The notes under the pieces are model-generated. The model was not told the DNA's origin and did not search any database. It was given only the letters and a program-made list of their open reading frames with translations. From a virus, in the IMG/VR virus record IMGVR_UViG_3300045988_117041: a DNA stretch of 64,000 bases, one strand, 5' to 3'. Shown here piece by piece: positions 40,895 to 61,201 of this stretch. A program made the position numbers and the translations under genes. Numbering within the stretch: position 1 is the stretch's first letter; each line of letters begins with the position of its first letter.

Positions 40895-43800
40895 ATGAAA
40901 GACGAAAGACTTAGAATGATGAAGCCCGTGGTCTACAGTCCGTTCTATTCCAAGTGGTATCCGTTAAGACCACGAATAGAGAAATACACCATTGTAGACA
41001 CCATTCCAAAACTTAGGAAGTTGGCGAAAAAAGCAAAGACAAAAACTGAATTTGCTTTTGATACAGAGACCAACGGGTTAAGAGCATACGGGCCAGACAA
41101 GAATTTCAGATGTGTGTGTATCACAATAAGCTGGGGGCCTAGAGATAACTACTATATCCCGCTTGCACACTTGCGTGACGAGGACATAGATAGAAACCTT
41201 GATTTAAGTGTTGCACGTCCTCTATTAAATAAGATATTGGGCCGCAAAGACGTAAGACTAATAGGACATAACATAAAATTTGATATGCACGTATTAGCGC
41301 GTATTGGCGTTTATGTAAAGACAAGAGACTTATTCGACACAATGGTAGGTGTTTGGCTATGTGATGAAAACACACCTAACGGTTTGAAAGAATCTTCAAA
41401 GATTAAGATGGATATAGACCAGACCCATTTTGCAGACGCAGTGGCTACAGTTCCAAAAGAAGTTAAAAAGCGTTTTGGTCTTAAGCCTAACAGTAAAGCC
41501 ACGTATGACCTTGTGCTGATAGACGAAGGTGCACCATACGCGTTAGATGATAGTTACTTTACCTGGGAACTGTACTTAGGTTTGTTAGAAGAACTTGAAC
41601 ATGAAGAAATGGATAAGATTTTCTACAAACACTATATGCCGTTCATATGGACACTGTATCATATGGAAGAACGAGGTATCACCGTTGATGTAGACAAGCT
41701 GAGACACATGGGTGTTGATATGGACAAAGACCTTGAAGACCTCATGTATCAGATGGTAGAGATTGCGGGTATACAGTTTAATCCGTCTTCACAGCAGTTA
41801 GGTGAATTATTGTTTGGTTATGTTAAAGAAGACAAGCTGAACGAAAAGACAGGTAAGATAACCAAAGCAAACCCAAACTGGGACATTATCAAGCGTTCCT
41901 TTAAGTTCCGTATCATAAGCACCACACCAAAAGGTGCACCACAAGTTAATAATGACGTATTGTGGAAATTGTCGCGCTTAGAGTATAAAAAGAGTAAGCG
42001 CAAACAGCAAGGTGTAGAATTTGTAAAGCTGTTAATGTCCTACAACAAAATCAAAAAGTTAAAGAGTGCTTTTGTTGACGGTCTGTTAGACCAGATATAT
42101 GATGATGGGAAAGCACACCCTTCCTATAACATCATAGGGACAGACACGGGACGTTTAAGCTGTACAAGCCCTAACCTACAGCAGTTGCCGAAAGCAGAGG
42201 AAGAAGACCAGTACCAGATTAGAAGTGTGTTTATCGGTAGTTTAGATAAGTCCACAGGTAAACGTAAAAAGTTAATCGCGTGTGACTATGCTAACCTGGA
42301 AATGCGTGTTCTTGCGCATTTTTGCGTTCAACGCAATATGCCTATTGCACTTGAAGACGGTTCAAGTATTGAGATGGGGAGTTTAGTGCAGAAATGTGAT
42401 AATAGTAGAAAAGTTAAATCATATAATTTTGATACCGGGAAGATAGAAGCACAGCCAATAACAAATTTCTGGAAGAATGGTAAGTCAAATTTATATGACA
42501 CACCACAATATCGAGGTACTCATGATGATTGGTTGAGAATAGTAAATGACGGAGACTATAGTAGACTTGTTGTTACTGACGACCATGAGATATTTACACC
42601 TCGTGGTAAAGTACGTGCAAAGAATTTACATGAAGGTGATACCATGTACTACAATGCCCCGGAATTTAGTGATGATTTAAAAGAACTTGTCGTGGGTATT
42701 ACACTAGGTGATTCAAACTTTAAAGACAAGTGGTCTGGTCTTGTGTTCTATCATGCTGACAGTCAACGTGAGTATTTAGATTGGAAGAAGTCTTTATTAA
42801 AAGACTATGTTGGCGAAGTTTTTGAAGACACTACAGTTAATAAGATATATTTAAAAGCTAACCCCTTTATACTCAAACTCAAAGAGTGTTACACACAAGG
42901 TAAAGACAATTCCCATAAGTTAATTAATGTAGATATAGTTAAACATATGAGTGTTAAGTCTTTAGCTGTATGGTATTTAGATGACGGGTGTTTTAGCCAC
43001 GATGATAGGTGTTGTAGTATGAGCGGATACAGTCTAACTATTGCTAGAAAGAATATATCCCTTGATGTAGTTAAGGCTTTAAATGATAAGTTTAATTTTA
43101 ATTTCAGACTTACTTCTACAGGTATTAGTTTATCAGGAAGTTATTTTAATAAGTTTTTAAGGGCTATAGCACCTTATTGCCCCAAGTGCATGAACTATAA
43201 GTTTCCTCACTTCTTAAAAGACCTAGTAGGTACTTATATCTGGAACACTGCACATCGTGATGTTACAGAAGTTAAGATTGTGAGTATAGAGAGAGTGCAG
43301 AAAGGGGACCCGTTATTTAAAAAGTCATTGATACAGTCTGGGTATGACTTAGAAGTGTTCGGTAACCATAACTACTTTGCCAACAACATACTTGTGTCCA
43401 ATAGTAAAGACAAGAATTTGATAGATATGTTCTTGTCCGGGGCAGATACACATGGTGCCACTGCTGTTAATATGTTCAATCTTGACTGTGAACCGAATGA
43501 GGTAAAGAAGAAGTATCACCATTTGAGACAAGCCGCGAAAATCATTAACTTTATGTTGATGTACGGTGGTGGTAGATTCAGACTGTATACTGCGCTTAGA
43601 GACGACCAGTCCTCACCCATTGATTTAGGTAGTGAAGAATATGTCACCTTGTACGCTAAACAGATAGCAGAGTTTAAGCGTAATTTCCGGGGACGTAAAG
43701 TACCTAGTGACGGGGAGATAGTAGCACAGATTTACATTGACCGCTACTTTGATTCATACAAAGGTGTTGCAGAGTTCATAAAGAGAGAAAAACGTTATGC

Positions 43801-44173
43801 ACATAGACACGGATATGTGTACACATTAAAACGCCGTAAAAGACGCATACCAGATATTAACAGTGATAATTTTGGTACTGTAGGGTACTGTGAGCGTGTT
43901 AGTGTCAATGCACCTATCCAGGGTAGTGCGGCAGACATAACGTCCAGTGCACAGAATCGTGTTGACCTTGACGATTTCTTTATAGAACACGGTGCACTGT
44001 TATTACTCCAAGTGCATGATGAACTTGTCATGGAATGTCCAGAAGAACACGTAGAGGTAGTCACTAAACGTCTGCAAGAGTTAATGGCACACCCATTCGG
44101 TGATAACATTGAACTGAACCTACCCCTTAGAGCAGACGCAGATTCAGGGGATTCCTACCAGGATGCCAAGTAA
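40895..44173 (+). CDS. polA: Family A DNA polymerase (3'-5' exonuclease plus polymerase), interrupted by an intein
   Basis: Exo I motif FAFDTETNGL. Motif A ACDYANLEMRVLAHF|intein|SKDKNLIDMFLSGADTHG. Motif B RQAAKIINFMLMYGG. Motif C LLLQVHDELVME. Confidence 0.85.
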   Translation: MKDERLRMMKPVVYSPFYSKWYPLRPRIEKYTIVDTIPKLRKLAKKAKTKTEFAFDTETNGLRAYGPDKNFRCVCITISWGPRDNYYIPLAHLRDEDIDRNLDLSVARPLLNKILGRKDVRLIGHNIKFDMHVLARIGVYVKTRDLFDTMVGVWLCDENTPNGLKESSKIKMDIDQTHFADAVATVPKEVKKRFGLKPNSKATYDLVLIDEGAPYALDDSYFTWELYLGLLEELEHEEMDKIFYKHYMPFIWTLYHMEERGITVDVDKLRHMGVDMDKDLEDLMYQMVEIAGIQFNPSSQQLGELLFGYVKEDKLNEKTGKITKANPNWDIIKRSFKFRIISTTPKGAPQVNNDVLWKLSRLEYKKSKRKQQGVEFVKLLMSYNKIKKLKSAFVDGLLDQIYDDGKAHPSYNIIGTDTGRLSCTSPNLQQLPKAEEEDQYQIRSVFIGSLDKSTGKRKKLIACDYANLEMRVLAHFCVQRNMPIALEDGSSIEMGSLVQKCDNSRKVKSYNFDTGKIEAQPITNFWKNGKSNLYDTPQYRGTHDDWLRIVNDGDYSRLVVTDDHEIFTPRGKVRAKNLHEGDTMYYNAPEFSDDLKELVVGITLGDSNFKDKWSGLVFYHADSQREYLDWKKSLLKDYVGEVFEDTTVNKIYLKANPFILKLKECYTQGKDNSHKLINVDIVKHMSVKSLAVWYLDDGCFSHDDRCCSMSGYSLTIARKNISLDVVKALNDKFNFNFRLTSTGISLSGSYFNKFLRAIAPYCPKCMNYKFPHFLKDLVGTYIWNTAHRDVTEVKIVSIERVQKGDPLFKKSLIQSGYDLEVFGNHNYFANNILVSNSKDKNLIDMFLSGADTHGATAVNMFNLDCEPNEVKKKYHHLRQAAKIINFMLMYGGGRFRLYTALRDDQSSPIDLGSEEYVTLYAKQIAEFKRNFRGRKVPSDGEIVAQIYIDRYFDSYKGVAEFIKREKRYAHRHGYVYTLKRRKRRIPDINSDNFGTVGYCERVSVNAPIQGSAADITSSAQNRVDLDDFFIEHGALLLLQVHDELVMECPEEHVEVVTKRLQELMAHPFGDNIELNLPLRADADSGDSYQDAK
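42323..43402 (+). mobile_element. Intein (360 aa) with a LAGLIDADG endonuclease in polymerase motif A
   Basis: Begins with Cys (CVQRNMPIALEDGSSIE). Block B VVTDDHEIF. LAGLIDADG motifs VGITLGDSNF and VWYLDDGCF. Blocks F/G YDLEVFGNHNYFANNILVSN, then +1 Ser. Confidence 0.75.
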
Positions 44174-51705: not shown

Positions 51706-52092
51706 ATGAAAACGAGTATTACAAAAATGTTCACCTTTGAAGCGGCACACAGATTACCTAACTATGTAGGTGCGTGTGCTAACCTTCATGGTCATTCTTA
51801 TAAACTTGCCGTGACTGTCACCACAGATAAGCCTTTAAATAAAGACCGCAACGCAACGGGTATGATAATGGATTTTAAAGTCCTCAAAGACATTGTGAAC
51901 CGAAAGGTTGTCGGCCCGTTAGACCATTCACTGTTAAATGACTTTTACTACAACCCCACCGCCGAGATTATGGTAGAAGACTTTGCCGCGAATATACAGG
52001 CAGGACTTGATGATTTTGATGAAAGTGTGTACGTTTCAAACATTAAGTTGTGGGAGACCGAAGACAGCTATGCAGAGTGGTCGAGAGACTAG
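51706..52092 (+). CDS. queD: 6-carboxy-5,6,7,8-tetrahydropterin synthase
   Basis: FTFEAAHRLPNY...CANLHGHSYKL matches the QueD/PTPS signature. Confidence 0.8.
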   Translation: MKTSITKMFTFEAAHRLPNYVGACANLHGHSYKLAVTVTTDKPLNKDRNATGMIMDFKVLKDIVNRKVVGPLDHSLLNDFYYNPTAEIMVEDFAANIQAGLDDFDESVYVSNIKLWETEDSYAEWSRD

Positions 52093-52109: not shown

Positions 52110-52751
52110 ATGATGTTCTATCATGAGATATTTTTATCTATACAGGGTGAATCCAGTGACGCAGGACGCCCTTGTATATTTGTAAGAATGTACGGCTGTC
52201 CGATTGGGTGTTCATATTGCGACCAGCCCCAGGAAAAGAGTGACAGAAAGCGTATTGGTGTTGACACCATGTTATCAAAGATATACGCATTGAAGTGTAA
52301 GAACGTGTGCTTCACAGGTGGAGAACCTATGATTTACGCGCAGGAACTTATACCCGTGTTTATCGAACTTACCGACCGGGGTTACACCGTGTCTGTAGAG
52401 ACCAGCGGGTGTGTAGAGTTAGAACCGTACCCAGTGAGAAGGTCATTTAAGTATGTGATGGATATTAAATGCCCCAGTAGTGAGGTGTCAGAGAAGAACA
52501 TTTACAGAAACCTTGCGTACTTACAGCCACATGACGAGGTGAAGTTTGTCGTGGCAGACGAGAAGGACTACCAATTTGCCCGTAACGTATTAAAGCGTTA
52601 TAATACCAGTGCGCAAATTTTATTTAGTCCCATGTTTGACACAGACGGCAAAGCAGTGATAGGACAAGAACTTGTGAACTGGATTTTGAGAGACAAGCTG
52701 TTTAATGCCCGGGTTCAGATTCAGTTACACAAAATTCTGTCAGTGAGGTAA
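52110..52751 (+). CDS. queE: 7-carboxy-7-deazaguanine synthase (radical SAM)
   Basis: EIFLSIQGES..GRPCIFVRMYGCPIGCSYCDQ matches the QueE N-terminal signature. Confidence 0.8.
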   Translation: MMFYHEIFLSIQGESSDAGRPCIFVRMYGCPIGCSYCDQPQEKSDRKRIGVDTMLSKIYALKCKNVCFTGGEPMIYAQELIPVFIELTDRGYTVSVETSGCVELEPYPVRRSFKYVMDIKCPSSEVSEKNIYRNLAYLQPHDEVKFVVADEKDYQFARNVLKRYNTSAQILFSPMFDTDGKAVIGQELVNWILRDKLFNARVQIQLHKILSVR

Positions 52752-52755
52752 ACAC

Positions 52756-53478
52756 ATGATTGGAAAACGTAACCCAGAAAAAGACCAAGACTATTACAAT
52801 GGTCTGATTGAGAGTATATGGTATAATCTAGTAGAGGTTAAATCAGAACTTACAGGTATTAAAGAGGAAGTAAACAAATACCATCCATTTAAAGAAGACC
52901 CAGGACACCTTAGTGCTGAAAGATTACCCGTAAAGAAAAATACTATTAGGGAGCACTTAAAGGAGGGTTATCTTCCTAAAAGACCCGTTAAGGTGTTCAG
53001 TAACCGGGACGAAGCATATGATTGTTTATACTACTGGTTAGAGAAGTTATATCTTACCGATTGGGCCATAAAACTTAAATTCGTGCGGATAAATGAAGAA
53101 CCACTGAATGACGAACAGTCTGGCAATGTACACAGAGTATTTGAGCAGAAAGCGGCGATAATCACCCTCCCATTACCAGACGATAACTTTCTTGACACCT
53201 GTAAAAGCAGTGTTGCGAGGGTGGGCCACGAACAGTCTTTGGTGCATGAGTTATTGCACTTAAAGGAAGACCCTGTACAGTTTGTAGAAGATGGTGATTA
53301 TACCGCCGGGTTCTATAACAGACACAAACACAATGAAGTTGAAATGATGGCAAGAACACTGTTAATGGTGAAGTACAACTTATCGCCGTCTTATTTCAAT
53401 AACGTAGACAGAAAGGAGAACGACAATGGCTTGTGGCACAAAGAAACCGAAGACACCGAAGAAACCCAAAAAGAATAA
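52756..53478 (+). CDS. Hypothetical HExxH (zinc-metallohydrolase-like) protein
   Basis: 240 aa containing the motif LVHELLHLKE. Confidence 0.4.
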   Translation: MIGKRNPEKDQDYYNGLIESIWYNLVEVKSELTGIKEEVNKYHPFKEDPGHLSAERLPVKKNTIREHLKEGYLPKRPVKVFSNRDEAYDCLYYWLEKLYLTDWAIKLKFVRINEEPLNDEQSGNVHRVFEQKAAIITLPLPDDNFLDTCKSSVARVGHEQSLVHELLHLKEDPVQFVEDGDYTAGFYNRHKHNEVEMMARTLLMVKYNLSPSYFNNVDRKENDNGLWHKETEDTEETQKE

Positions 53479-53524: not shown

Positions 53525-53544
53525 GTATGAAAGGAATACATGAC

Positions 53545-53853
53545 ATGGGACAGATATCAAAATTAGCTGAAAATGCGTATGAAACCGCAGTTGCGCACGG
53601 TTGGTATGACACACCAGTTTCGTTTGGTGAGGAAGTTGTGTTGTGTCACAGTGAGTTATCCGAAGCACTACAGGAGTTTAGAGTAGGAGGGTTTGGAACA
53701 CGTAAAGACAAGATAACTGAGGAACTAGCAGACACAGTTATAAGGATTTTTACTCTAAGTTCAAGACACCAGCTTGACATTGAAGCGGCAATATTAAAGA
53801 AGATGGAAAAGAACAAAGACAGACCATACAGACATGGAGGAAAGTTACTATGA
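53545..53853 (+). CDS. MazG-like nucleoside triphosphate pyrophosphohydrolase
   Basis: HSELSEALQEF...EELADTVIRIF fits the MazG EExxE/D pattern. Confidence 0.6.
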   Translation: MGQISKLAENAYETAVAHGWYDTPVSFGEEVVLCHSELSEALQEFRVGGFGTRKDKITEELADTVIRIFTLSSRHQLDIEAAILKKMEKNKDRPYRHGGKLL

Positions 53854-55565
53854 GTAAACCAGTTGTAGTATTAAATAGTGGAGGTTTTGACAGCACCGTA
53901 TTGTTACATTATGTAAAAGAGGTTGAAGAAGACAGTCTTGTATACTCACTGTTTTTTGAATACGGTCAGCGTTCCATGGAACAAGAAAGACGCTGTGCGC
54001 GTAAAAACTCTGTAGACCTTGACGCGCAGTATATAGGTGTCAGTCTTCCAAAGATATACTGGACTGGCAGTGACTTCTATAATGAGGGAGAGTTTAAGGT
54101 AGACAAGCAGTATCTTGAAATGAGAAATTTAATTTTTCTGTCATATGCTCTTTCCTTTGCAGAGAGTGTAGGTGCAGAAAAGGTTTATCTTGCAGTGCTG
54201 AAATCACACCACGGGTATCCAGACACATCACCTAGATTTATTAGTGCTATGAATGAGGTATCGAATATAATAGGTGTTAGTATTGAAGCACCATTTATAG
54301 AGAGTGACAAATACAACCTTGTTGGTCTTGCTTACAAGTACGGCATTACTGAAAACGACTTTCACAGTTGTGATAAACCTACTACAGACGGGAAACCGTG
54401 TGGCGTGTGTGATGATTGTGAGGTAGTAAAAGAAATCATGTCCCAGTTAGAGTTAAAACACCCACGGGACGTAAAGTTTAGTCCAAGAGGAACACATGAA
54501 CAGTATGAGACCGTCTATAAAGAGTACCCGGTGAATGAGTTAAGATTCACCATAAATAACAGGTGCCAGTTTAGTTGCGCTCATTGTTACTACGGATATG
54601 AGACTTCACACCGGGAAGACCTATCAGAGAAGGAACTTACTGAATTTGCTATCAGACTTCACAAGCAGTTTGGGTTTAAGAGTATTCACTATTGCGGCAA
54701 AGAACCTATGATTGATAGCGCGATATTTGATTCCATAAGGACACTTAGGAAGGTGTTACCCGTTGACATTGAATACAGTGTTGTAACAAACGGCTTAACT
54801 GTGACTGAATACTATGAGCAGTTAGTGAATGAAAGGTTGTTAGACAAGGTGTTCCTGTCCGTTGATGATATTGAGACAGTGACGGATAAAGAACAGAAGT
54901 TACGAAACACCAGTAGGCATATATTAAATGCTATAGACTTCCTGGTTACGAATAAAGTTCCGTTACAAGTGTTTATTGACCTTCACAAAGGTAACTACAA
55001 CTACATCAATGAAATGTTGTATCAGTTAGTGAAGTTAGGTGTTAGAGAGTTTTTCGTCCGGGCAATAATGCCAATAGGTAACGCCGAAGACCTTGAACCT
55101 CTGTCCATAGCAGAGATAGCGGAAGTGTACAGTAAACTTAAGAGGTTGACAAACTATTACCACACCACCGTTAAAGACTTTAAAGTACTTCTTACTTTAG
55201 GTAAAGACGTTATAGTCCGTATGCAGGAGCGTGACATTGACGATATGACAAAAGACGAGGAAGACTTAATAGAAATGGTTGCAAAGTCTTTAGAGTATAA
55301 CACAGACGTTGTTGTGCCGGGAATGAGTATATACCCGGAGGAAGTTTGCACACAGTTTCTTGATACTCTTACCCTTACATCAGACGGGTATGTGTTAGGC
55401 TGTACTTCCGCTGTAAGCTGTAGTGAGTACTGGAAACACAGCGCGTTTGATATAAATACACCAGACGAGGACTTCAAGAATCGTTTGATTGAAGCAAGAA
55501 GTAAGGTGTTAGAGTATGACGGTGAAAATTGTCCATTTTCTTGTCCCAAAAGTATTGACATTTAA
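53850..55565 (+). CDS. queC: QueC (7-cyano-7-deazaguanine synthase) fused to a radical-SAM domain with C-terminal Cys-rich (SPASM/twitch-like) region
   Basis: PP-loop VVVLNSGGFDSTV. QueC zinc motif CGVCDDCEV. Then CQFSCAHCYY (CX3CX2C, 54564-54587). Further Cys residues in CTQF, GCTSAVSC and CPFSCP. Confidence 0.7.
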   Translation: MSKPVVVLNSGGFDSTVLLHYVKEVEEDSLVYSLFFEYGQRSMEQERRCARKNSVDLDAQYIGVSLPKIYWTGSDFYNEGEFKVDKQYLEMRNLIFLSYALSFAESVGAEKVYLAVLKSHHGYPDTSPRFISAMNEVSNIIGVSIEAPFIESDKYNLVGLAYKYGITENDFHSCDKPTTDGKPCGVCDDCEVVKEIMSQLELKHPRDVKFSPRGTHEQYETVYKEYPVNELRFTINNRCQFSCAHCYYGYETSHREDLSEKELTEFAIRLHKQFGFKSIHYCGKEPMIDSAIFDSIRTLRKVLPVDIEYSVVTNGLTVTEYYEQLVNERLLDKVFLSVDDIETVTDKEQKLRNTSRHILNAIDFLVTNKVPLQVFIDLHKGNYNYINEMLYQLVKLGVREFFVRAIMPIGNAEDLEPLSIAEIAEVYSKLKRLTNYYHTTVKDFKVLLTLGKDVIVRMQERDIDDMTKDEEDLIEMVAKSLEYNTDVVVPGMSIYPEEVCTQFLDTLTLTSDGYVLGCTSAVSCSEYWKHSAFDINTPDEDFKNRLIEARSKVLEYDGENCPFSCPKSIDI

Positions 55566-55582: not shown

Positions 55583-55671
55583 TGTATTCAGAGATTTAGG
55601 AATGGCGTAGGTCTTCCGTATTTACCTACAGCCTAGTCCCTTGCTCACAATACGATAAGGAGGTAAACACC

Positions 55672-55848
55672 ATGATGAATGTTTACGCAGAATCCCCCAA
55701 AGGTGGCGGGCGTGCCGCTGGTGGTAATGCACAGCAGACTGCACCCGCACCGACCAGAGGTGGAGTAAGAGCCACACTGGGTAGAGCGGCTACAGGTGCA
55801 AGAAACGCGCTGAACAGGATTATTCGTCCCAGAGGACGTAACCGTTAA
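55672..55848 (+). CDS. Small Gly/Ala/Arg-rich basic protein (not in the ORF track)
   Basis: 58 aa, MMNVYAESPKGGGRAAGGNAQQTAPAPTRGGVRATLGRAATGARNALNRIIRPRGRNR. SD AAGGAGG lies 8 nt upstream. Confidence 0.55.
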   Translation: MMNVYAESPKGGGRAAGGNAQQTAPAPTRGGVRATLGRAATGARNALNRIIRPRGRNR

Positions 55849-55870
55849 TCAGTCCCGCACCAAGAAAGAG

Positions 55871-55905: not shown

Positions 55906-55950
55906 CCCGGATTTATGTTATACTGTCATAAAAAGAAAGGAGACAACACA

Positions 55951-56205
55951 ATGTATATTGAATCACCAAGAGACAAAGAAGGAGTTAGAGATTGGGAAGC
56001 AGAGGAAGACGCACAGGCATTATTAAAAGCCCGGCAGATTAATGCAGACCCCGTAAGAAAAGCAAAAGCACAGGCGGTTATAAGGAGTATCCAAGCCACG
56101 TTAAAAGGTGCTTTGACGGGGACACCTCCTGTAAACACGCCGAGTTCAAGAAATAACCCCGCCACTATCGGACAGTTAAACATTCCCAGCAGAAACAGAA
56201 GATAA
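55951..56205 (+). CDS. Hypothetical small protein with a basic C-terminus
   Basis: 84 aa. ATG 55951 follows AAAGGAG. The track start at 55915 overlaps the TGtTATACT promoter element. Confidence 0.5.
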   Translation: MYIESPRDKEGVRDWEAEEDAQALLKARQINADPVRKAKAQAVIRSIQATLKGALTGTPPVNTPSSRNNPATIGQLNIPSRNRR

Positions 56206-56260: not shown

Positions 56261-56812
56261 ATGAACGATAAGTACAATTTGAGTTCAAAAGAGCAGGATA
56301 TAGCCAGCCATATAAAAGGTATAATGAGTTTGCTAGGTATTGAGGAAACACCATCAAACATAGACACCCCAAAGCGGATAGCGAAAATGTATAGCCGCGA
56401 AGTGTTTAGCAGTGAAGGTAAAGACCTAGCCGAACTTGACGCACAAATGACTACTTTCATTAACACGGATTTGAGTTCAATGCCCGTGACAATGACCGGG
56501 ATTAAATTTAGTTCCATGTGTGCACACCACTGGCTACCATTTTTCGGTGAAGTAGAGATAAGCTACACACCATTTACTAAAGTGATTGGGCTGTCAAAAC
56601 TGCCGCGAGTTGTGAAGTGGTTCAGTAAAAAGCCACAGACCCAGGAAGAAATGACGAAAGAGATAGGGAACTACTTAGCAGTGTTCCTTAATCCCCGTAA
56701 ACTGTCCGTGAAGGTAACAGCATTGCATACTTGCGTAGCGTGTAGGGGAATTGAGAGCGTAGGGACAGAGACCATAACTGAATACAGATATAACAGAGGG
56801 GAAGACGCTTAA
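56261..56812 (+). CDS. folE: GTP cyclohydrolase I
   Basis: SSMCAHHWLPFFG and KKPQTQEEMTKEI match the FolE signatures. Confidence 0.8.
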   Translation: MNDKYNLSSKEQDIASHIKGIMSLLGIEETPSNIDTPKRIAKMYSREVFSSEGKDLAELDAQMTTFINTDLSSMPVTMTGIKFSSMCAHHWLPFFGEVEISYTPFTKVIGLSKLPRVVKWFSKKPQTQEEMTKEIGNYLAVFLNPRKLSVKVTALHTCVACRGIESVGTETITEYRYNRGEDA

Positions 56813-56876: not shown

Positions 56877-57458
56877 ATGAAGGTAGCAATATTTAATGGC
56901 AGTTCAAGACAGCATAGTAACAGTGAACTAATCTCAGGTGAATTAAGACGTATATTTGAGCGTCTAGGGTATGACACCGTAGTGCTCAATGCAAGTGACA
57001 TGACAGGCTGTAGACCATGTAATCAATGTGGATTCTGTAGTTCAGTAGGTAGCTGTATATATGAAAGAGATACTCTGGGACAACACCATATTAAATGTAT
57101 ATGGGCTAGTGACATATGGGTGATTGTAACACCTGTGTATTGCTTTTCCATGTCCCCGCCGACCTTGACGTTACTGTCCCGGTTTTATTCTTATGGCCCA
57201 GAAGTGTTGCAAGATAAAGTTGTGTCTTCTGTGATAGTAAGTGGCAGTAGCGGTAGATATGGTGGAAAGAGCCTTGTAAATGAATCCTTTAAGCGATACT
57301 TTGAATATACAGGTGCTAACTATACAAACAAGCCCATAGGTATCACTACAAACGACACCGTGTTAGAAGACCTGCATACACTTACACCACGGTTAAGACT
57401 ATTTTGTAAAGACTTGATAAGGAGAGCGAAAAATGCTGAAAATAGTACCAAGGACTAA
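56877..57458 (+). CDS. Flavodoxin-fold FMN reductase / iron-sulfur flavoprotein-like
   Basis: MKVAIFNGSSRQHSNS (NADPH-dependent FMN reductase N-terminus) plus the Cys cluster CRPCNQCGFCSSVGSC. Confidence 0.55.
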   Translation: MKVAIFNGSSRQHSNSELISGELRRIFERLGYDTVVLNASDMTGCRPCNQCGFCSSVGSCIYERDTLGQHHIKCIWASDIWVIVTPVYCFSMSPPTLTLLSRFYSYGPEVLQDKVVSSVIVSGSSGRYGGKSLVNESFKRYFEYTGANYTNKPIGITTNDTVLEDLHTLTPRLRLFCKDLIRRAKNAENSTKD

Positions 57459-59601
57459 AAAGAAACCCGTACCAAAGAAAAAGGTTCCACCAAAAAAGAA
57501 GACCACCACGCCCGTAGAGATAGACGAGACCCCGGAAGTAGAGGAAGAACCAAAAAAGAACTATAGTTCTCTGCATGATGTAATGGACACTAACAGACCT
57601 TTTAAGTTAGTGTTTTCTGGCGTTGAGAATGAAAGCTACTATGACATACTTTTTGATTGCGGCGTGCGTAGCTTTCTAATGTCCTATCACTATATCCAGA
57701 GCAAGCACATTAAAATGCGTGATAGGTTTGATGGGACGGGTGTTAAACTGTTTATTGATAGTGGCGCGCATACATACCAGAATGACCCTAAATATCTGGA
57801 ACTTCCGTTAGAGTATTGGGAGAAGCACTTGCAGAAGTACCTTAACTGGGTTGAGCGGAATAGAAAGTATATATTTGCCATAGCAAGTTTTGACTTTGAG
57901 AACATTGTAGGTGCAGACACAGTAGATAGGTGGAACCGAGAATACTTAGAACCGTTCATGTTGCGCACAGGTATACCAGTGTGTTTCGTGTGGCACCAAA
58001 ATTCAAAGTATGACTGGGAGTTCTATTGCAAGCGTTATCCCTATGTGGGATTTTCGTCTGTCAATACAGAAGGTGAAGCCATAGAACTATCAGAGTATAA
58101 ACAAAGACTGAAAGTGGCAGAGAAGAACGAAGCACTTGTACACGGGTTCGGTATGACGCGTACAGGTATGTTGACTGAACTTCCCTTCTACACCTCAGAT
58201 AGTACGACATGGCTTGTGGGTTTGCAGTATGGGGAAATGAACTACTGGAATGGCACCAAAATGAACCGCCTTAAGAAAGACAAGTGGAAATCACCTGCTG
58301 TACTATCAGAGTTTGAGAGAAGGTATAACTCAGACCAAACACTGTTAGAGCAGGAAGACATAACCGAGGTGATAAAAGTCAATGTGTTTGCTTTCCTTGA
58401 CGCAGAGGATTATATCGTCACCAAGCTACGTTCTCAAATGTACTGGTTAAAAGCAAAGACAACTAAACGGGACGTGAATAACTTACCGCCAGACTTCTTT
58501 CCAGACCCTGACATGGTGATGGTGTGTTTAGACGAAGGTGATAAAAGTGTAGTGTCATATGCTCAGAAATTTAATATCAACCCGGAATATGCTGACGCTG
58601 ACTTTTTAGTGTGTTGTGCTACATTGTTCCTTAACTGGGATAACTCAATATACAGTGACTGTAAGGACATACTCATTGAGGACGAAGCAGTGATTAAATC
58701 CCTCCATGACACACTGATAAACAGGATAGTCCCAGGTGTTGATGAAATGGTCGAAGACCTAACGCAGTTATTCAAAGAGTGCATAAGCGGTGAGAATGAC
58801 AAGCTATTACAGATAGGCACCAACTTTGACCGCGCACAGAAAGAGCGTGAACACTATATAGAGGAAGAAGACGAGTATGAGGAAGTAGAAGTATCAGAAG
58901 GTGAGATAAGGGCCGCTGTGTATAACAACATTCCTAAAGACCGTCTTCTTACCGCAGGTGAAGATTCCGCGCCAGAGATTACGGAACTTGACGCAGAAAT
59001 ATTTAACGGCACAGGTATAACACCACGTTTTGATGATAGAGGTAAATTCCTTAAAGGTGTTAGACAAGTAAAGAAACCAAAGTCCGTGTACAGTAAGAAG
59101 TTCCCTAAACTGGCGTGTGCTACGTGTTTCGCGGCAAGTACGTGTCCAGAATACAAAGACGGCTATGTGTGTGCTTATAATAAGCTGTTCAGCAACTATG
59201 ACACACGTAACATGGGTGACATTGTAGAAGCTATGCAATCCATGGCAAGTGTGAACATGGGCCGCCTACAGAAAGCAATGCTGTTTGAGACACTAGGTGG
59301 TGCATTAGACCCACAGGTATCACAGCTTATTAATCAGAACGTCACTTTGCTGAACAACCTTAAGTCAATGTATGAGAACACCAACGCAATGGTGCTTAAA
59401 CAGACCCGCAATATAAGACAGGACGGAAGTGTAGAAGAATCTGTGCAAGTAACCAATCCTCATAGCATGGGTATTATGGAACAGTTACTATCAAAGATAA
59501 TGCCTAGCAGTGATAAAGAAGACGAGGTTATAGTTGAATCAGAGGACGTAACACCCAAAAAGAAAAGCAGTGCATATGCAGACCTGGAAGAAGACGACTA
59601 A
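57433..59601 (+). CDS. dpdA: DpdA-like DNA-guanine transglycosylase (TGT superfamily) with a ~390-aa C-terminal extension
   Basis: FLMSYHYI...KLFIDSGAHTY...VGFSSV resembles phage DpdA. Lies in a cluster with queCDE and folE. The C-terminal part is acidic and contains CATCFAASTCPEYKDGYVC. Confidence 0.55.
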   Translation: MLKIVPRTKKKPVPKKKVPPKKKTTTPVEIDETPEVEEEPKKNYSSLHDVMDTNRPFKLVFSGVENESYYDILFDCGVRSFLMSYHYIQSKHIKMRDRFDGTGVKLFIDSGAHTYQNDPKYLELPLEYWEKHLQKYLNWVERNRKYIFAIASFDFENIVGADTVDRWNREYLEPFMLRTGIPVCFVWHQNSKYDWEFYCKRYPYVGFSSVNTEGEAIELSEYKQRLKVAEKNEALVHGFGMTRTGMLTELPFYTSDSTTWLVGLQYGEMNYWNGTKMNRLKKDKWKSPAVLSEFERRYNSDQTLLEQEDITEVIKVNVFAFLDAEDYIVTKLRSQMYWLKAKTTKRDVNNLPPDFFPDPDMVMVCLDEGDKSVVSYAQKFNINPEYADADFLVCCATLFLNWDNSIYSDCKDILIEDEAVIKSLHDTLINRIVPGVDEMVEDLTQLFKECISGENDKLLQIGTNFDRAQKEREHYIEEEDEYEEVEVSEGEIRAAVYNNIPKDRLLTAGEDSAPEITELDAEIFNGTGITPRFDDRGKFLKGVRQVKKPKSVYSKKFPKLACATCFAASTCPEYKDGYVCAYNKLFSNYDTRNMGDIVEAMQSMASVNMGRLQKAMLFETLGGALDPQVSQLINQNVTLLNNLKSMYENTNAMVLKQTRNIRQDGSVEESVQVTNPHSMGIMEQLLSKIMPSSDKEDEVIVESEDVTPKKKSSAYADLEEDD

Positions 59602-60444: not shown

Positions 60445-60473
60445 TTGACAGCATTTACCATATATGCTACACT
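60445..60473 (+). promoter_or_regulatory. Sigma-A-type promoter
   Basis: TTGACA, 17-nt spacer, TGcTACACT. Confidence 0.5.
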
Positions 60474-60520
60474 GTACCAGTATCACTATTAAACAACCAC
60501 ATACAAAAGGAGGAAAAGAA

Positions 60521-61201
60521 ATGGCAGTAATCAGAACAAGTACAGGTGAGAAGCCCAAGAGAGGGGAGCTGTACTACGTCTATCCGCAGATGGCGTGGGA
60601 CAATGATGATTCTGAGAAAGGGACAAGCAGAACTGATGTAAAGAGTGGGAGACCCGCTATCATTATTGGTAATGACGCTGGGAATGGTGCTTCTGATATG
60701 TGTGTTATTGCGTGGCTTACACGTCAAGACAAAGCACCTTTACCAGAACACGTTACAGTACCTTCCGGCCCCGCCAAAGAATCAACTATGTTGCTGGAAC
60801 ACCCCATCACCGTGTCTCAATCGCGTTTAGGTGAAAAGATTAGCACCTGTTCCACACCATTAATGAAGAAAGTTGATTCTGCATTGCTGGTATCTATAGG
60901 TATATGTGATACCTTACAAGACGCGGAATATCTGTTAAAATGTCGTGCTATGGTGTATGACTTGCAAGCGCAGGTAGATACATATAAGCATGAGTTAGAG
61001 CAGAAAGACGCGGAAATTAAAGCACTGAATGATAAACTTGAATCACACGACACGAACATAAGAGATTTAAGTAATCGGTTAGAGTGTGCGGAAAGCAGAA
61101 CACCTATAAACCCAAGTGATTTAAAACTTGAACTGGTGTTAAATGAGCGGGATTATTTGAGAGACCTTGTTAAGCTGTCAATGACAGGAGGTATTATCTA
61201 A
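60521..61201 (+). CDS. PemK/MazF-fold domain fused to a C-terminal coiled coil
   Basis: RGELYYVYP...GRPAIIIGNDAGN...CVIAWLT...STMLLEHPITVSQSRL fits the MazF/PemK pattern. The C-terminal ~90 aa form a heptad-rich coiled coil. Confidence 0.5.
   Translation: MAVIRTSTGEKPKRGELYYVYPQMAWDNDDSEKGTSRTDVKSGRPAIIIGNDAGNGASDMCVIAWLTRQDKAPLPEHVTVPSGPAKESTMLLEHPITVSQSRLGEKISTCSTPLMKKVDSALLVSIGICDTLQDAEYLLKCRAMVYDLQAQVDTYKHELEQKDAEIKALNDKLESHDTNIRDLSNRLECAESRTPINPSDLKLELVLNERDYLRDLVKLSMTGGII

Follow-up and report, generated by a model that had tools for sequence, protein, structure and literature searches.

The 64,000-nt window considered here, the whole stretch of DNA that was analysed (IMG/VR virus record IMGVR_UViG_3300045988_117041), contains a gene that joins a QueC-family domain to a radical SAM domain in one reading frame. 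The fusion is genuine, common in uncultured phages and previously undescribed. It lies within a complete phage 7-deazaguanine cluster, the setting that an earlier note had read from the sequence, and it probably adds a chemical step to phage DNA modification. What evidence there is on the substrate of this step implicates a small basic protein whose gene follows shortly downstream; a radical step directed at this peptide and coupled to QueC is the explanation that we tentatively favour. The features discussed below, with the evidence for each, are as follows.

51706..52092, + strand: QueD (CPH4 synthase); Pfam PTPS 2.9e-29, conserved position
52110..52751, + strand: QueE (CDG synthase, the pathway's own radical SAM enzyme); NCBIfam, Pfam Radical_SAM
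53850..55565, + strand: QueC-radical SAM fusion; ORF, motifs, Pfam, conserved family, AF2 model
53862..54428, + strand: QueC domain, residues 5-193; Pfam, motifs, family alignment
54552..54992, + strand: radical SAM core, residues 235-381; Pfam, alignment, motifs
55347..55544, + strand: twitch-like region of the putative auxiliary cluster; invariant columns, MoaA alignment, Foldseek
55672..55848, + strand: small basic protein, 58 aa, MMNVYAESPKGGG...; SD, GC island, covariation
56261..56812, + strand: FolE (GTP cyclohydrolase I); Pfam 3.4e-44
56877..57458, + strand: FMN reductase-fold protein; Pfam FMN_red 7e-16
57433..59601, + strand: DpdA-type transglycosylase homologue, 722 aa; PHROG 887, hhalign

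The fusion gene and its cluster

The ORF runs uninterrupted for 571 aa from an ATG that overlaps the stop codon of the preceding MazG-like gene (ATGA), with a GGAGG 9 nt 5′ of the start. Pfam places QueC at residues 5-193 (E 9.9e-34, 117 bits, cut-off 22) and Radical_SAM at residues 235-381 (E 9e-14, 52.4 bits, cut-off 29.5); the motifs and domain matches are far beyond chance. The unbroken frame proposed in the earlier note is thus confirmed by Pfam for both halves, and the motifs that it had picked out are all present: the PP-loop SGGFDS (residues 10-15, nt 53877-53894), the zinc motif CGVCDDC within the C174/C184/C187/C190 site (nt 54369-54419) and, exactly at 54564-54587, CQFSCAHC (residues 239-246). 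The AF2 model of the protein is compact (pLDDT 92.1, pTM 0.89).

In a search of 5.8 billion proteins we found 202 homologues. Among the best 120 of them, QueC and Radical_SAM occur together in 120/120; these proteins are 544-575 aa long and, with the exception of four near-identical entries, show 33-40% identity. The identical protein occurs on 74 contigs, and a single ORF with an alignable, structured linker is kept in over 100 distinct proteins that are 33-40% identical. A frameshift joining two genes, which had been named as a possible source of the fusion, is excluded by the 202 homologues, of which the best 120 share one architecture throughout; we give a negligible chance to any sequencing or assembly artefact merging two separate genes. 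The same protein is public as DAE21420.1 (Myoviridae sp. ctgXL3), where its sole label is QueC/ExsB. The fusion is absent from INPHARED (GenBank phages), and no paper on a QueC-radical SAM fusion was found in the deazaguanine and QueC-family literature searched, in agreement with the first reading, which had not recognised a fusion of this type. In a related contig, L055, we saw a frameshift within the QueC half, so such breaks do occur; otherwise the artefact reading had no support.

By sequence comparison, the surrounding genes form a 7-deazaguanine cluster of the Bacillus phage BCD7 type (QueD, QueE, QueC, FolE, DpdA). FolE, QueD and QueE are predicted to make 7-carboxy-7-deazaguanine (CDG), with a DpdA-type transglycosylase downstream. 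QueE matches the NCBIfam QueE models at 4e-57 and 2e-45, under their cut-offs; queD and queE stand directly upstream of the QueC gene in every locus, and synteny is kept among members of only 35-40% identity. The DpdA-type protein matches PHROG 887 at 9e-73 and, in hhalign, the DpdA of Qyrzula (Rosebush cluster) with probability 96.9% and E 1.8e-10. It has in common with this DpdA the motifs RNxLxSYHY, DSGA, HGxGxT and LPFxxxDSxxW, and its D109 and D256 are invariant. Pfam (TGT), NCBIfam, a PDB profile search and Foldseek gave no support for the assignment; Supplementary Data 1 of Hutinet 2019 names the BCD7 homologue DpdA.

The FMN reductase-fold protein carries four invariant cysteines (C48-X2-C51-X2-C54-X5-C60). 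It was found in 23/39 loci with a radical SAM domain versus 0/33 loci without, and is the probable electron donor of that domain.

In every locus examined the radical SAM domain is either fused to QueC or located between FolE and DpdA. Standalone copies follow the order FolE-rSAM-FMN reductase-DpdA, with L081 as a split form. Two loci, L021 and L034, have flanking DNA 92-96% identical, while identity is 96% for QueE, 92% for FolE, 67% for DpdA and 45% for QueC; whether a radical SAM domain is present also differs between them, as do the small ORF and the FMN reductase. The radical SAM domain is an optional add-on, which may be fused, separate after FolE, decayed, or absent in near-identical phages.

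The two halves of the protein

We read the N-terminal half as a QueC-family ATP pyrophosphatase with a PP-loop, a Tyr-x-Asp CDG site and a zinc site, all predicted from sequence. In a 64-sequence alignment G11, G12, D14 and S15 of the PP-loop are invariant, with S10 and F13 at least 90% conserved. Invariant too are all four cysteines of the zinc site C174-X9-C184-X2-C187-X2-C190, whose spacing is one residue longer than the canonical C(x)8CxxCxxC. The candidate CDG site is Y123-P-D125, with an invariant D125 and with Tyr in most sequences; R92-N93 is also present. CDG is recognised by a stacking Tyr and a Watson-Crick-edge Asp in B. subtilis QueC (Y129/D131) and in Cap9 (Y115/D117) (PMC13279940).

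The refined canonical QueC signature consists of YxQxHxxE, VPxRN, YPDC and Tyr189 after the first zinc cysteine (PMC13329287), and the QueC half of the fusion departs from it. We found YGQRS (His to Ser; Asn is commonest in the family), LEMRN with just the RN of VPxRN retained, YPDT (Cys to Thr) and C174-D175 (Tyr to Asp or Asn). BCD7 and its relatives show the same losses in their unfused QueC, and these characterise the BCD7-like lineage as a whole; the QueC proteins of CP20, Qyrzula and Youna2 retain the canonical motifs. Against the NCBIfam equivalog TIGR00364 the fusion scores 100.1 bits (cut-off 150.3), against the PADLOC QueC model PDLC00911 74 bits, and the family profile matches QueC 3BL5 at 3e-26 and Cap9 at 8e-16. 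The description of this half as a complete QueC therefore stands as regards the PP-loop, the zinc site and the passed Pfam cut-off, but the domain is non-canonical, with three signature positions lost and a score under the NCBIfam cut-off.

The C-terminal half is a radical SAM domain of the twitch type, not a full SPASM domain, with a putative auxiliary cluster. All three cysteines of C239-X3-C243-X2-C246 are invariant in the alignment; in the SAM motif G283-K-E-P, G283 and E285 are invariant and K284 and P286 at least 90% conserved, and T313-N-G is also present. The solved relatives nearest by PDB profile are MoaA (1.5e-19) and SkfB (2.6e-17). A structure search by Foldseek, which the earlier note had called for, gave as best match the twitch enzyme SkfB (6efn, 2.3e-11), with CteB and SuiB also among the top structural neighbours. 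Five C-terminal cysteines (500, 518, 524, 561 and 565) had suggested an auxiliary Fe-S cluster. They are all there; however, only C500, C518 and C565 are invariant in the 64-member alignment, while C524 and C561 are not conserved. C500 and C518 form a hairpin, C500-X12-G513-X4-C518 (G513 invariant), and align with two auxiliary-cluster cysteines of MoaA; C565 belongs to the tail 559-571, unstructured in the AF2 model.

PF13186 (SPASM) was not detected in the fusion protein at E <= 0.01 and has a precomputed match in 4/120 of the best 120 of 202 homologues. With three invariant C-terminal cysteines the family also differs from the seven-Cys SPASM pattern CX9-15GX4C...CX2CX5CX3C...C. Of the label radical-SAM/SPASM-like, then, the radical SAM part holds (PF04055, invariant CX3CX2C) and the SPASM part gives way to twitch-like. 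No RRE or other Pfam domain was found between QueC and the radical SAM core, the C-terminal domain passes no curated family cut-off, and RaSEA is not among the 25 of 46 NCBIfam families listed as matches.

Two identities were considered for this domain and rejected. For MoaA, NCBIfam gives 64.3 bits (cut-off 325), and the middle Cys and the R266/R268 positions are missing. Prokaryotic viperins match weakly (NCBIfam 45 bits, far under the cut-off of 180; PADLOC pVip 51 bits, in the N-terminal half only); the fusion family has three invariant auxiliary cysteines, while viperins, to our knowledge, have no auxiliary cluster.

A covarying small protein and the possible substrate

The gene of the small basic protein has a strong SD upstream and lies in a 55-58% GC island. 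Near its N-terminus the protein carries the motif ..(K/N)(V/A)(Y/F)A(E/D/Q).., with Glu following Ala here. After dereplication to 34 lineages, we observed E, D or Q after the motif Ala in 18/19 lineages with an intact radical SAM domain versus 1/15 without (Fisher p = 1.5e-7). L062 was added as the nineteenth positive, giving 19/20 versus at most 1/15, as the contig of L077, the lone contrary case without radical SAM, stops before any separate radical SAM gene could show. The exception on the other side is L060, with an intact radical SAM domain yet Gly at this position. On the QueC tree, six or more contrasts between sisters agree with the covariation; with a decayed radical SAM remnant the residue is Ser, with a split but intact radical SAM it is Gln. 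This covariation shows that the two are functionally tied, but does not make the residue the place where hydrogen is abstracted; the same pattern would arise if a DNA-binding peptide had adapted to another DNA base.

Members of the small protein family also exist in relatives without the radical SAM domain, therefore the protein has a function independent of it. The small ORF co-occurs with the divergent QueC signature, in the BCD7-like lineage only, and Youna2 has no such ORF. Of the traits of a RiPP-like maturase-precursor pair, the small ORF adjoins the radical SAM gene and its residue tracks the enzyme, whereas no RRE was detected. The peptide contains no cysteine, the usual partner in twitch/SPASM thioether chemistry. 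Its N-terminus resembles the cleavage site of the protease Prp, MLxx(D/N)LQ(F/L)F'A(S/H)KK, reused by other phages (PMC9405229, PMC5744158); from this resemblance we infer Prp processing.

The explanation that we tentatively favour would proceed as follows. Host Prp probably cuts the small protein between Tyr/Phe and Ala, which would expose an N-terminal Ala-(Glu/Gln/Asp) on a flexible Gly/Ser-rich tail. The QueC domain would activate CDG with ATP and hold this tail, and it may acylate the tail amine, as its homologue Cap9 does. The flavoprotein would reduce the radical SAM domain; SAM would be cleaved, and the resulting 5′-deoxyadenosyl radical would take a hydrogen from the methylene beside the side-chain carbonyl of residue 2, the single feature common to Glu, Gln and Asp. 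The open iron of the three-Cys auxiliary cluster would position the reaction partner. This would yield a small protein in modified form, perhaps joined to deazaguanine, rather than simply a new free base.

Several observations argue for such a peptide-directed step: the fusion is conserved and linked to the pathway, with its catalytic motifs invariant and Tyr-x-Asp retained; a residue of the small protein covaries with the intact radical SAM domain; the best structural neighbours, SkfB, CteB and SuiB, are peptide maturases; the QueC-family enzymes Cap9 and QatC bind flexible protein N-termini; the small ORF and the divergent QueC signature are found together only in the BCD7-like lineage; and the motif resembles a published Prp site. 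On the other side, the small protein exists also where radical SAM is absent, it has no cysteine and no RRE is detectable, and L060 has Gly despite an intact domain. The QueC half is nearer to canonical QueC than to Cap9 by profile E-value, the MG(G/T)S N-terminal acceptor of Cap9/QatC substrates is missing from the small protein, Prp processing is deduced from motif resemblance, and the covariation fits a DNA-binding peptide too. Finally, the nearest characterised enzymes by sequence (MoaA, viperin, BlsE) use nucleotides or nucleosides.

The main rival overall is a new or alternative deazaguanine base, which we regard as only slightly less likely. In one version, the idea of the earlier note, rather unlikely to our mind but favoured by this last point, the radical SAM domain would convert ADG/preQ0 (the QueC product) or CDG into an undescribed base that DpdA inserts, and the small protein would be a DNA-binding partner with an N-terminal residue adapted to the new major-groove substituent. 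Fusion of consecutive pathway enzymes is the commonest cause of such architectures, the remaining cluster is a standard DNA-base pathway with a DpdA homologue, and known phage pathways are extended likewise (Gat-QueC, QueF, DpdL, DpdM, DpdN). MoaA has an auxiliary cluster of three Cys with an open iron, and binds the guanine of GTP with it. Between L021 and L034, moreover, DpdA is more diverged than QueE or FolE; yet over 19 loci DpdA follows phage phylogeny with no grouping by radical SAM presence. To our understanding, moreover, none of CDG, ADG and preQ0 offers the 5′-deoxyadenosyl radical an sp3 C-H to abstract; a second substrate or addition chemistry would be required. Tight covariation of a residue beside a putative processing site is also less natural for a DNA-binding partner, and the neutral Gln in a quarter of the radical-SAM lineages weakens the charge-complement argument. 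In the other version, in our view improbable, the base would be a known one and the enzyme new: radical SAM domain and Fe-S flavoprotein would together replace the missing QueF, Gat or ArcS-RaSEA step and convert preQ0 to preQ1 or the archaeosine base G+ by a radical or iron-sulfur route, so that the derivative in phage DNA would already be familiar. None of the loci showed a gene for QueF, a glutamine amidotransferase or ArcS, a dedicated low-potential reductase accompanying radical SAM only would suit a net reduction, and a cationic preQ1 or G+ could account for the acidic or amide residue of the small protein. A radical SAM partner, RaSEA, does take part in archaeosine synthesis in archaea (PMC11298593). 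Still, RaSEA is missing from the NCBIfam matches listed, and the problems of the sp3 C-H and of a DpdA that does not covary with radical SAM are the same here. Nor are we aware of any radical SAM enzyme that reduces a nitrile.

A function unrelated to deazaguanine, e.g. a viperin-like nucleotide modifier or a general host-takeover enzyme fused by chance, is very unlikely. The weak viperin matches would speak for it, but in every locus examined the domain is confined to the deazaguanine cluster and, unlike viperins, has three invariant auxiliary cysteines. Its nearest relatives are nearly all the QueC fusion, and more distant relatives outside such clusters form a separate branch (24-30% identity).

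One could speculate further that the cluster makes a peptide-bearing DNA base, with the genome covalently decorated by protamine-like peptides, though we consider this decidedly improbable. Prp would free the N-terminal Ala, and the QueC domain would acylate its amine with CDG as in Cap9. The radical SAM domain would cross-link or remodel the adjacent Glu/Gln/Asp, e.g. by a MoaA-like addition to deazaguanine C8, and the DpdA-type transglycosylase would put the conjugate into phage DNA via the free N9. The authors of the Cap9/Cap10 work raised the possible integration of protein-linked deazaguanine into nucleic acid.

The family is a large uncharacterised radical SAM branch wired to QueC, with well over 100 distinct sequences, abundant in gut-type metagenomes and annotated everywhere just as 'QueC'; current annotation overlooks a whole domain and probably a reaction as well. 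We know of eight 7-deazaguanine derivatives in phage DNA, and each new tailoring enzyme known to us so far brought a new base and a new route of restriction evasion. The covarying small protein suggests that the pathway product may differ chemically among sister phages, and the protein/peptide chemistry of the QueC family, so far seen in bacterial defence only, may operate in phages too. As near-identical phages with and without the module and the cultured, module-less Bacillus phage BCD7 provide natural controls, the question is directly testable.

Comparison with known systems

The DpdA/preQ0 clusters of Escherichia phage CAjan, Mycobacterium phage Rosebush and BCD7 have the same FolE, QueD, QueE, QueC and DpdA-type set, and the DpdA-like protein is homologous to the DpdA of the Rosebush cluster. 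With BCD7, catalogued as a DpdA phage (Hutinet 2019 Supplementary Data 1), the gene order is in common down to the signal peptidase, SpoVS and small basic ORFs. The three clusters differ in having a standalone QueC and neither a second radical SAM enzyme nor an FMN reductase; the QueC of the BCD7-like lineage, unlike that of CP20, Qyrzula and Youna2, has lost three canonical signature positions. No DNA-base measurement was found in the literature for BCD7 or its lineage.

MoaA (GTP 3′,8-cyclase) is the best-scoring characterised relative by sequence, and in it, too, a three-Cys auxiliary cluster lies C-terminal to the radical SAM core. The middle Cys of its CX2CX13C is missing in the fusion, where the third ligand position is taken by the Cys of the C-terminal tail. 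Of R17, R266 and R268, which we take to be the GTP-binding arginines of MoaA, the fusion keeps an equivalent of R17 only (R232). These are the positions mutated in PDB entry 2FB2. The genomic context of the fusion is unrelated to molybdopterin synthesis.

With the twitch/SPASM maturases SkfB, CteB and SuiB the fusion has in common the CX9-15GX4C hairpin and a small ORF directly downstream in which a residue tracks the enzyme. Among radical SAM maturases, PapB and QhpD abstract hydrogen next to an Asp/Glu side-chain carboxylate. The fusion differs in that it has no RRE or leader-binding domain, a peptide without cysteine and three conserved auxiliary cysteines versus the seven of SPASM, and in being joined to a nucleobase-activating domain within a DNA-modification cluster. 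In the ArcS-RaSEA system (PMC11298593), an amino acid is joined to the deazaguanine first and the radical SAM partner then completes the reaction; there the substrate is tRNA-bound preQ0 and the partner ArcS is a TGT paralogue, not QueC.

Cap9/Cap10 of type IV CBASS and QatC/QatB combine a QueC-family enzyme and a TGT-family protein with a partner protein that inserts its flexible, Gly/Ser-rich N-terminus into the active site of QueC. Cap9 performs normal QueC chemistry with a protein amine replacing ammonia; acylation with CDG has been shown for Cap9 and inferred for QatC. In Cap9 as in the BCD7-like QueC, YxQxH has lost its His and no Tyr follows the first zinc Cys. These are, however, bacterial defence systems, with operons that have neither their own CDG synthesis genes nor a radical SAM enzyme. 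Their acceptor is the exposed Gly of an N-terminal MG(G/T)S; here the Ala amine would need the inferred Prp-like cut. By profile, the QueC half of the fusion is nearer to canonical QueC than to Cap9.

Gat-QueC of Enterobacteria phage 9g and archaea likewise combines QueC with a fused tailoring domain in a phage deazaguanine cluster, with G+ as the product. In Gat-QueC a class-II glutamine amidotransferase, placed N-terminally, provides the nitrogen, while the fusion described here carries its iron-sulfur radical enzyme at the C-terminus.

A single gene for QueC and a radical SAM domain

The proposed fusion of QueC with a radical SAM domain was found to be one ORF, in which every motif named in the earlier note occupied the position assigned to it.

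Features of the fusion
53850..55565, + strand: QueC–radical SAM fusion, single unbroken ORF, 571 aa
Residues 10-15, + strand: SGGFDS, PP-loop
C174-X9-C184-X2-C187-X2-C190: zinc motif in the QueC half
Residues 239-246, nt 54564-54587, + strand: CQFSCAHC, radical SAM Cys motif
Residues 500, 518, 524, 561 and 565: C-terminal cysteines

In Pfam the protein product matched QueC at residues 5-193 (E-value 9.9e-34) and Radical_SAM at residues 235-381 (9e-14), both over the curated cut-offs; PHROGs divided the protein into the same two parts. A search of 5.8 billion proteins produced 202 homologues, the best 120 of which all carried QueC + Radical_SAM, had lengths of 544-575 aa and, save for four near-identical entries, showed 33-40% identity to the fusion. 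With the C-terminal domain alone as a query against 1.84 billion cluster representatives, we observed matches almost solely to the same fusion, aligned at ∼residues 215-540. The exact protein is already public (DAE21420.1 / UniRef100_A0A8S5QS09, ‘Myoviridae sp. ctgXL3’); it was present on 74 contigs (the largest of 85.5 kb), labeled only as ‘ExsB’ or ‘7-cyano-7-deazaguanine synthase’. The earlier concern that a frameshift had artificially joined two genes can be dismissed; this and an assembly artefact are ruled out by the one architecture kept in the best 120 homologues, by the 64-member alignment of fusion homologues in which residue conservation was judged and by the recurrence of the exact protein. 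Multi-domain matches of 600-1100 aa were rejected as informative fusions (generic tandem rSAM/SPASM proteins), and two long homologues, P0123 and P0139, were set aside, the former lying on a short contig and the latter on a frameshifted one.

Among the GenBank phages in INPHARED the fusion was absent, with matches spanning the QueC half only, and no cultured phage carrying the radical SAM module was found there. The searchable deazaguanine and QueC-family literature does not mention a QueC–radical SAM fusion, nor does it describe an extra radical SAM enzyme in clusters with DpdA, the deazaguanine transglycosylase that puts the base into DNA; this agrees with the earlier remark that such a fusion was not recognised among phage deazaguanine pathways.

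Features of the two halves

Invariant residues of the radical SAM part included C239, C243, C246, G283, E285, N314 and G315, along with exactly three C-terminal cysteines, C500, C518 and C565. The arrangement C500-X12-G513-X4-C518 is a hairpin typical of SPASM/twitch domains; the remainder of the seven-cysteine SPASM pattern was absent and PF13186 was unmatched by the fusion protein in Pfam. Thus, the radical SAM/SPASM-like assignment stood as far as the PF04055 match, the hairpin and the three invariant cysteines are concerned, but a full SPASM domain is ruled out, and we call the domain twitch-like because the hairpin is present while the rest of the pattern and PF13186 are missing. C500 and C518 align to two auxiliary cysteines of MoaA; in the same alignment its middle auxiliary cysteine and the residues at the R266/R268 positions had no counterpart in the fusion. 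Judging by sequence, the auxiliary cluster of the twitch-like domain would probably have one open iron.

An AlphaFold2 model of the fusion built from the alignment was compact and confident (pLDDT 92.1, pTM 0.89); its one unstructured part is the tail 559-571, where C565 lies. In the Foldseek search that the earlier note had proposed, the C-terminal half fell among twitch and SPASM enzymes: SkfB (2.3e-11) and next CteB, SuiB, NifB, MoaA, viperins, DesII, BlsE and EpeE. By profile, the closest solved sequences were MoaA (1.5e-19) and SkfB (2.6e-17). Membership in MoaA, viperin, NirJ, PqqE or any curated NCBIfam family was rejected, with scores far under the cut-offs; the closest cellular standalone relatives of the domain likewise had no curated NCBIfam family near cut-off.

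In the QueC half, the PP-loop, R92-N93, D125 and the four zinc cysteines were invariant in the 64-member alignment. The Tyr-x-Asp that recognises 7-carboxy-7-deazaguanine (CDG), structurally defined for QueC and for Cap9, a QueC-family enzyme of bacterial defence (PMC13279940), is kept as Y123 and D125. The canonical QueC signature, as described in 2026, consists of YxQxH, VPxRN, YPDC and, following the first zinc Cys, an essential Tyr (PMC13329287). The fusion has Ser for the His of YxQxH (mostly Asn across the family), VPxRN cut down to RN and YPDT for YPDC, and the essential Tyr is Asp or Asn in the fusion family. What had been described as a complete QueC therefore has its PP-loop, zinc site and CDG-recognition residues, but several positions of the canonical signature are altered. 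The state of this active site had been predicted to track the presence of radical SAM; we found instead that the divergent signature characterises the lineage, since QueC shares it where unfused, as in Bacillus phage BCD7, a syntenic relative without radical SAM, and in other relatives. Canonical motifs are retained in Campylobacter phage CP20, mycobacteriophage Qyrzula and Weizmannia phage Youna2. The fusion-family profile is nearer to canonical QueC (3e-26) than to Cap9 (8e-16).

We consider it firmly supported that the gene encodes an enzyme with two functions in a deazaguanine system of the BCD7 type, in which QueC is physically joined to a twitch-type radical SAM domain whose catalytic motifs are complete.

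The gene cluster and its optional module

The window is that of a myovirus, with portal, major head, sheath and tape-measure proteins as well as PolA, RecA and SpoVS. Around the fusion the genes are ordered QueD, QueE, a 240-aa protein, a MazG-like protein, the fusion and small ORFs; FolE comes next, then a protein with the FMN reductase fold and a DpdA-like protein of 722 aa. This order recurs in ∼120 loci from IMG/VR, GTDB genomes and metagenomes (L001-L120) and is the same in members just 35-40% identical.

Other features of the window
40895-44173, + strand: family-A DNA polymerase, LAGLIDADG homing-endonuclease-like segment at residues 589-772
52756-53478, + strand: 240-aa protein, its gene flanked by QueE and the MazG-like gene, HExxH motif HELLH at nt 53245-53259
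53527-53853, + strand: MazG-like pyrophosphohydrolase gene, stop overlapping the fusion start in ATGA
55672-55848, + strand: small basic protein directly after the fusion, AAGGAGGT upstream
55915-56205, + strand: second small-ORF family between QueC and FolE, C-terminal motif N-[PK]-A-T-[IV]-G, here NNPATIGQL
57433-59601, + strand: DpdA-type protein, 722 aa, ∼2x the length of Rosebush-cluster DpdA
60464-61201, + strand: PemK/MazF-like toxin domain protein, a few genes downstream of DpdA

The overlap of the MazG-like gene, found in this phage only among the loci examined, with the start of the fusion suggests translational coupling. The 240-aa protein had no family match; shorter homologues occupy the equivalent position in L013 and L018-L020. 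The second small-ORF family is also present in L013, L018, L060 and L081, and an ATVG-like motif is repeated in shorter ORFs beside it. The LAGLIDADG-like segment of the polymerase is possibly an intein. The PemK/MazF-like protein has a counterpart in L001 (13806-14162), so that at least two members far apart in the lineage conserve it.

The DpdA-like protein had no support from Pfam, NCBIfam, PDB sequences or Foldseek, the latter giving only generic TIM barrels for a model that AlphaFold2 built poorly. The assignment was rescued by hhalign, which showed homology to Rosebush-cluster DpdA (probability 96.9%, E-value 1.8e-10) with motifs in common; the BCD7 homologue has been catalogued as DpdA (Hutinet 2019). 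In the C-terminal third of the window protein four clustered cysteines are invariant (C562, C565, C571 and C580; nt 59116-59172), and this part also matches a small-terminase PHROG weakly (6e-07).

Six states were observed at the QueC position: the fusion; standalone QueC of ∼205 aa, as in BCD7 and numerous others; QueC-X, a form of 447 aa (L030-L033, L094, L098 and L100-L109, e.g. L030:9998-11338); a split form in which radical SAM is a separate gene 3′ of FolE (L006-L008, L081); a frameshifted copy (L055); and a decayed radical SAM remnant (L078, L112). The ∼240-aa C-terminal domain of QueC-X has no Cys motif and no Pfam match; a degenerate radical SAM domain was rejected (profile E-value 0.02) and, given the absence of both Cys motif and profile similarity, we treated it as a different add-on. 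In QueC-X loci the covarying residue of the small proteins, described below, is Thr, Val or Ile. L078 and L112 are two copies of the cluster region on one contig (BNJT01002654.1, 137 kb); neither remnant retains the CX3CX2C part, and in one copy QueC is fragmented as well. In L006 (536-2351; standalone radical SAM form) resolvase and IS605-type OrfB/TnpB genes lie immediately upstream of FolE, in the usual place of QueC and the small ORF.

Flanking DNA is 92-96% identical between L021, which has the fusion, and L034, which has QueC only. Identity is 99% for SpoVS, 96% for QueE, 92% for FolE, 67% for DpdA and 45% for QueC; the two also differ in the radical SAM domain, the small ORF and the FMN reductase. 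The reductase was present in 23 of 39 radical-SAM loci versus none of the 33 others. Its motif CX2CX2CX5-13C is invariant, so the protein is predicted to be an iron-sulfur flavoprotein, suited as an electron source for reducing the radical SAM clusters. That the radical SAM domain is optional and was co-acquired with a dedicated Fe-S flavoprotein is, in our view, firmly supported.

The small basic protein and the substrate of the radical step

In all loci of the lineage QueC is directly followed by one small ORF of 40-90 aa or, often, by two; Youna2, with its canonical QueC, has no small basic ORF. Their products are strongly basic, rich in Gly, Ser and Arg, and share an N-terminal motif (K/N)(V/A)(Y/F)-A-X. 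In the window this ORF (58 aa) lies within an island of 55-58% GC in a genome of 41% GC. A riboswitch or other RNA was rejected for the GC-rich 55625-55850 region, given the strong SD and the conserved protein family located there; Rfam had zero matches at the gathering threshold across the whole window.

Covariation was counted after dereplication to 34 lineages, 19 with intact radical SAM and 15 without. The residue X was Glu, Asp or Gln in 18 of the former versus one of the latter (Fisher p = 1.5e-7), and the QueC tree provided at least six sister contrasts that agreed. The sole contrary lineage without radical SAM, L077, lies on a 1.2-kb contig ending before any separate radical SAM gene could show. 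Manual checks added L062 as a further positive and left L060 as a true exception. X was Ser with a decayed radical SAM remnant and Gln with a split but intact form. The motif is similar to the published site of the host protease Prp in Firmicute L27, MLxx(D/N)LQ(F/L)F'A(S/H)KK, cleaved between F and A and reused by other phages on unrelated proteins (PMC9405229, PMC5744158). A Prp-like cut of the small protein would expose Ala-X on a flexible tail. A host-specific Prp preference is unlikely to lie behind the covariation, as the ∼95% identical phages L021 and L034 differ at X. We regard as firmly supported a functional tie between the radical SAM domain and the residue that would come second in the small protein after its putative processing.

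The substrate of the domain we infer. We tentatively favor a radical step directed at a peptide, a credible though by no means assured reading, because the covariation is the sole evidence on the substrate, Glu, Gln and Asp all have a methylene adjoining a carbonyl, and the nearest structures are peptide maturases. Also, Cap9 was shown to acylate a protein N-terminus, and both it and QatC, another defence enzyme of the QueC family, bind flexible protein N-termini (PMC13279940).

The main rival is a step directed at the base, leading to a new base or to a known base via a new route; with both outcomes counted together, we hold it to be a serious possibility, slightly less likely than the peptide-directed step. 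The logic of fusing to QueC, the type of cluster and the sequence affinities to MoaA, viperin and BlsE speak for it, but the covariation would then require a separate explanation. Furthermore, by our own chemical reasoning, CDG and the QueC products ADG and preQ0 have no sp3 C–H. DpdA was predicted to group by radical SAM presence; in fact the DpdA, QueE and FolE trees follow phage phylogeny with the two radical SAM states interleaved. Because promiscuity is possible among DpdA enzymes (preQ1, preQ0 and CDG are all inserted by DpdA2), this is only weak evidence against a base-directed role.

In the searchable literature we found no description of the radical SAM module, be it fused or split, of the flavoprotein that goes with it or of the covarying small protein; the base deazaguanine cluster that hosts them is of an already known type.
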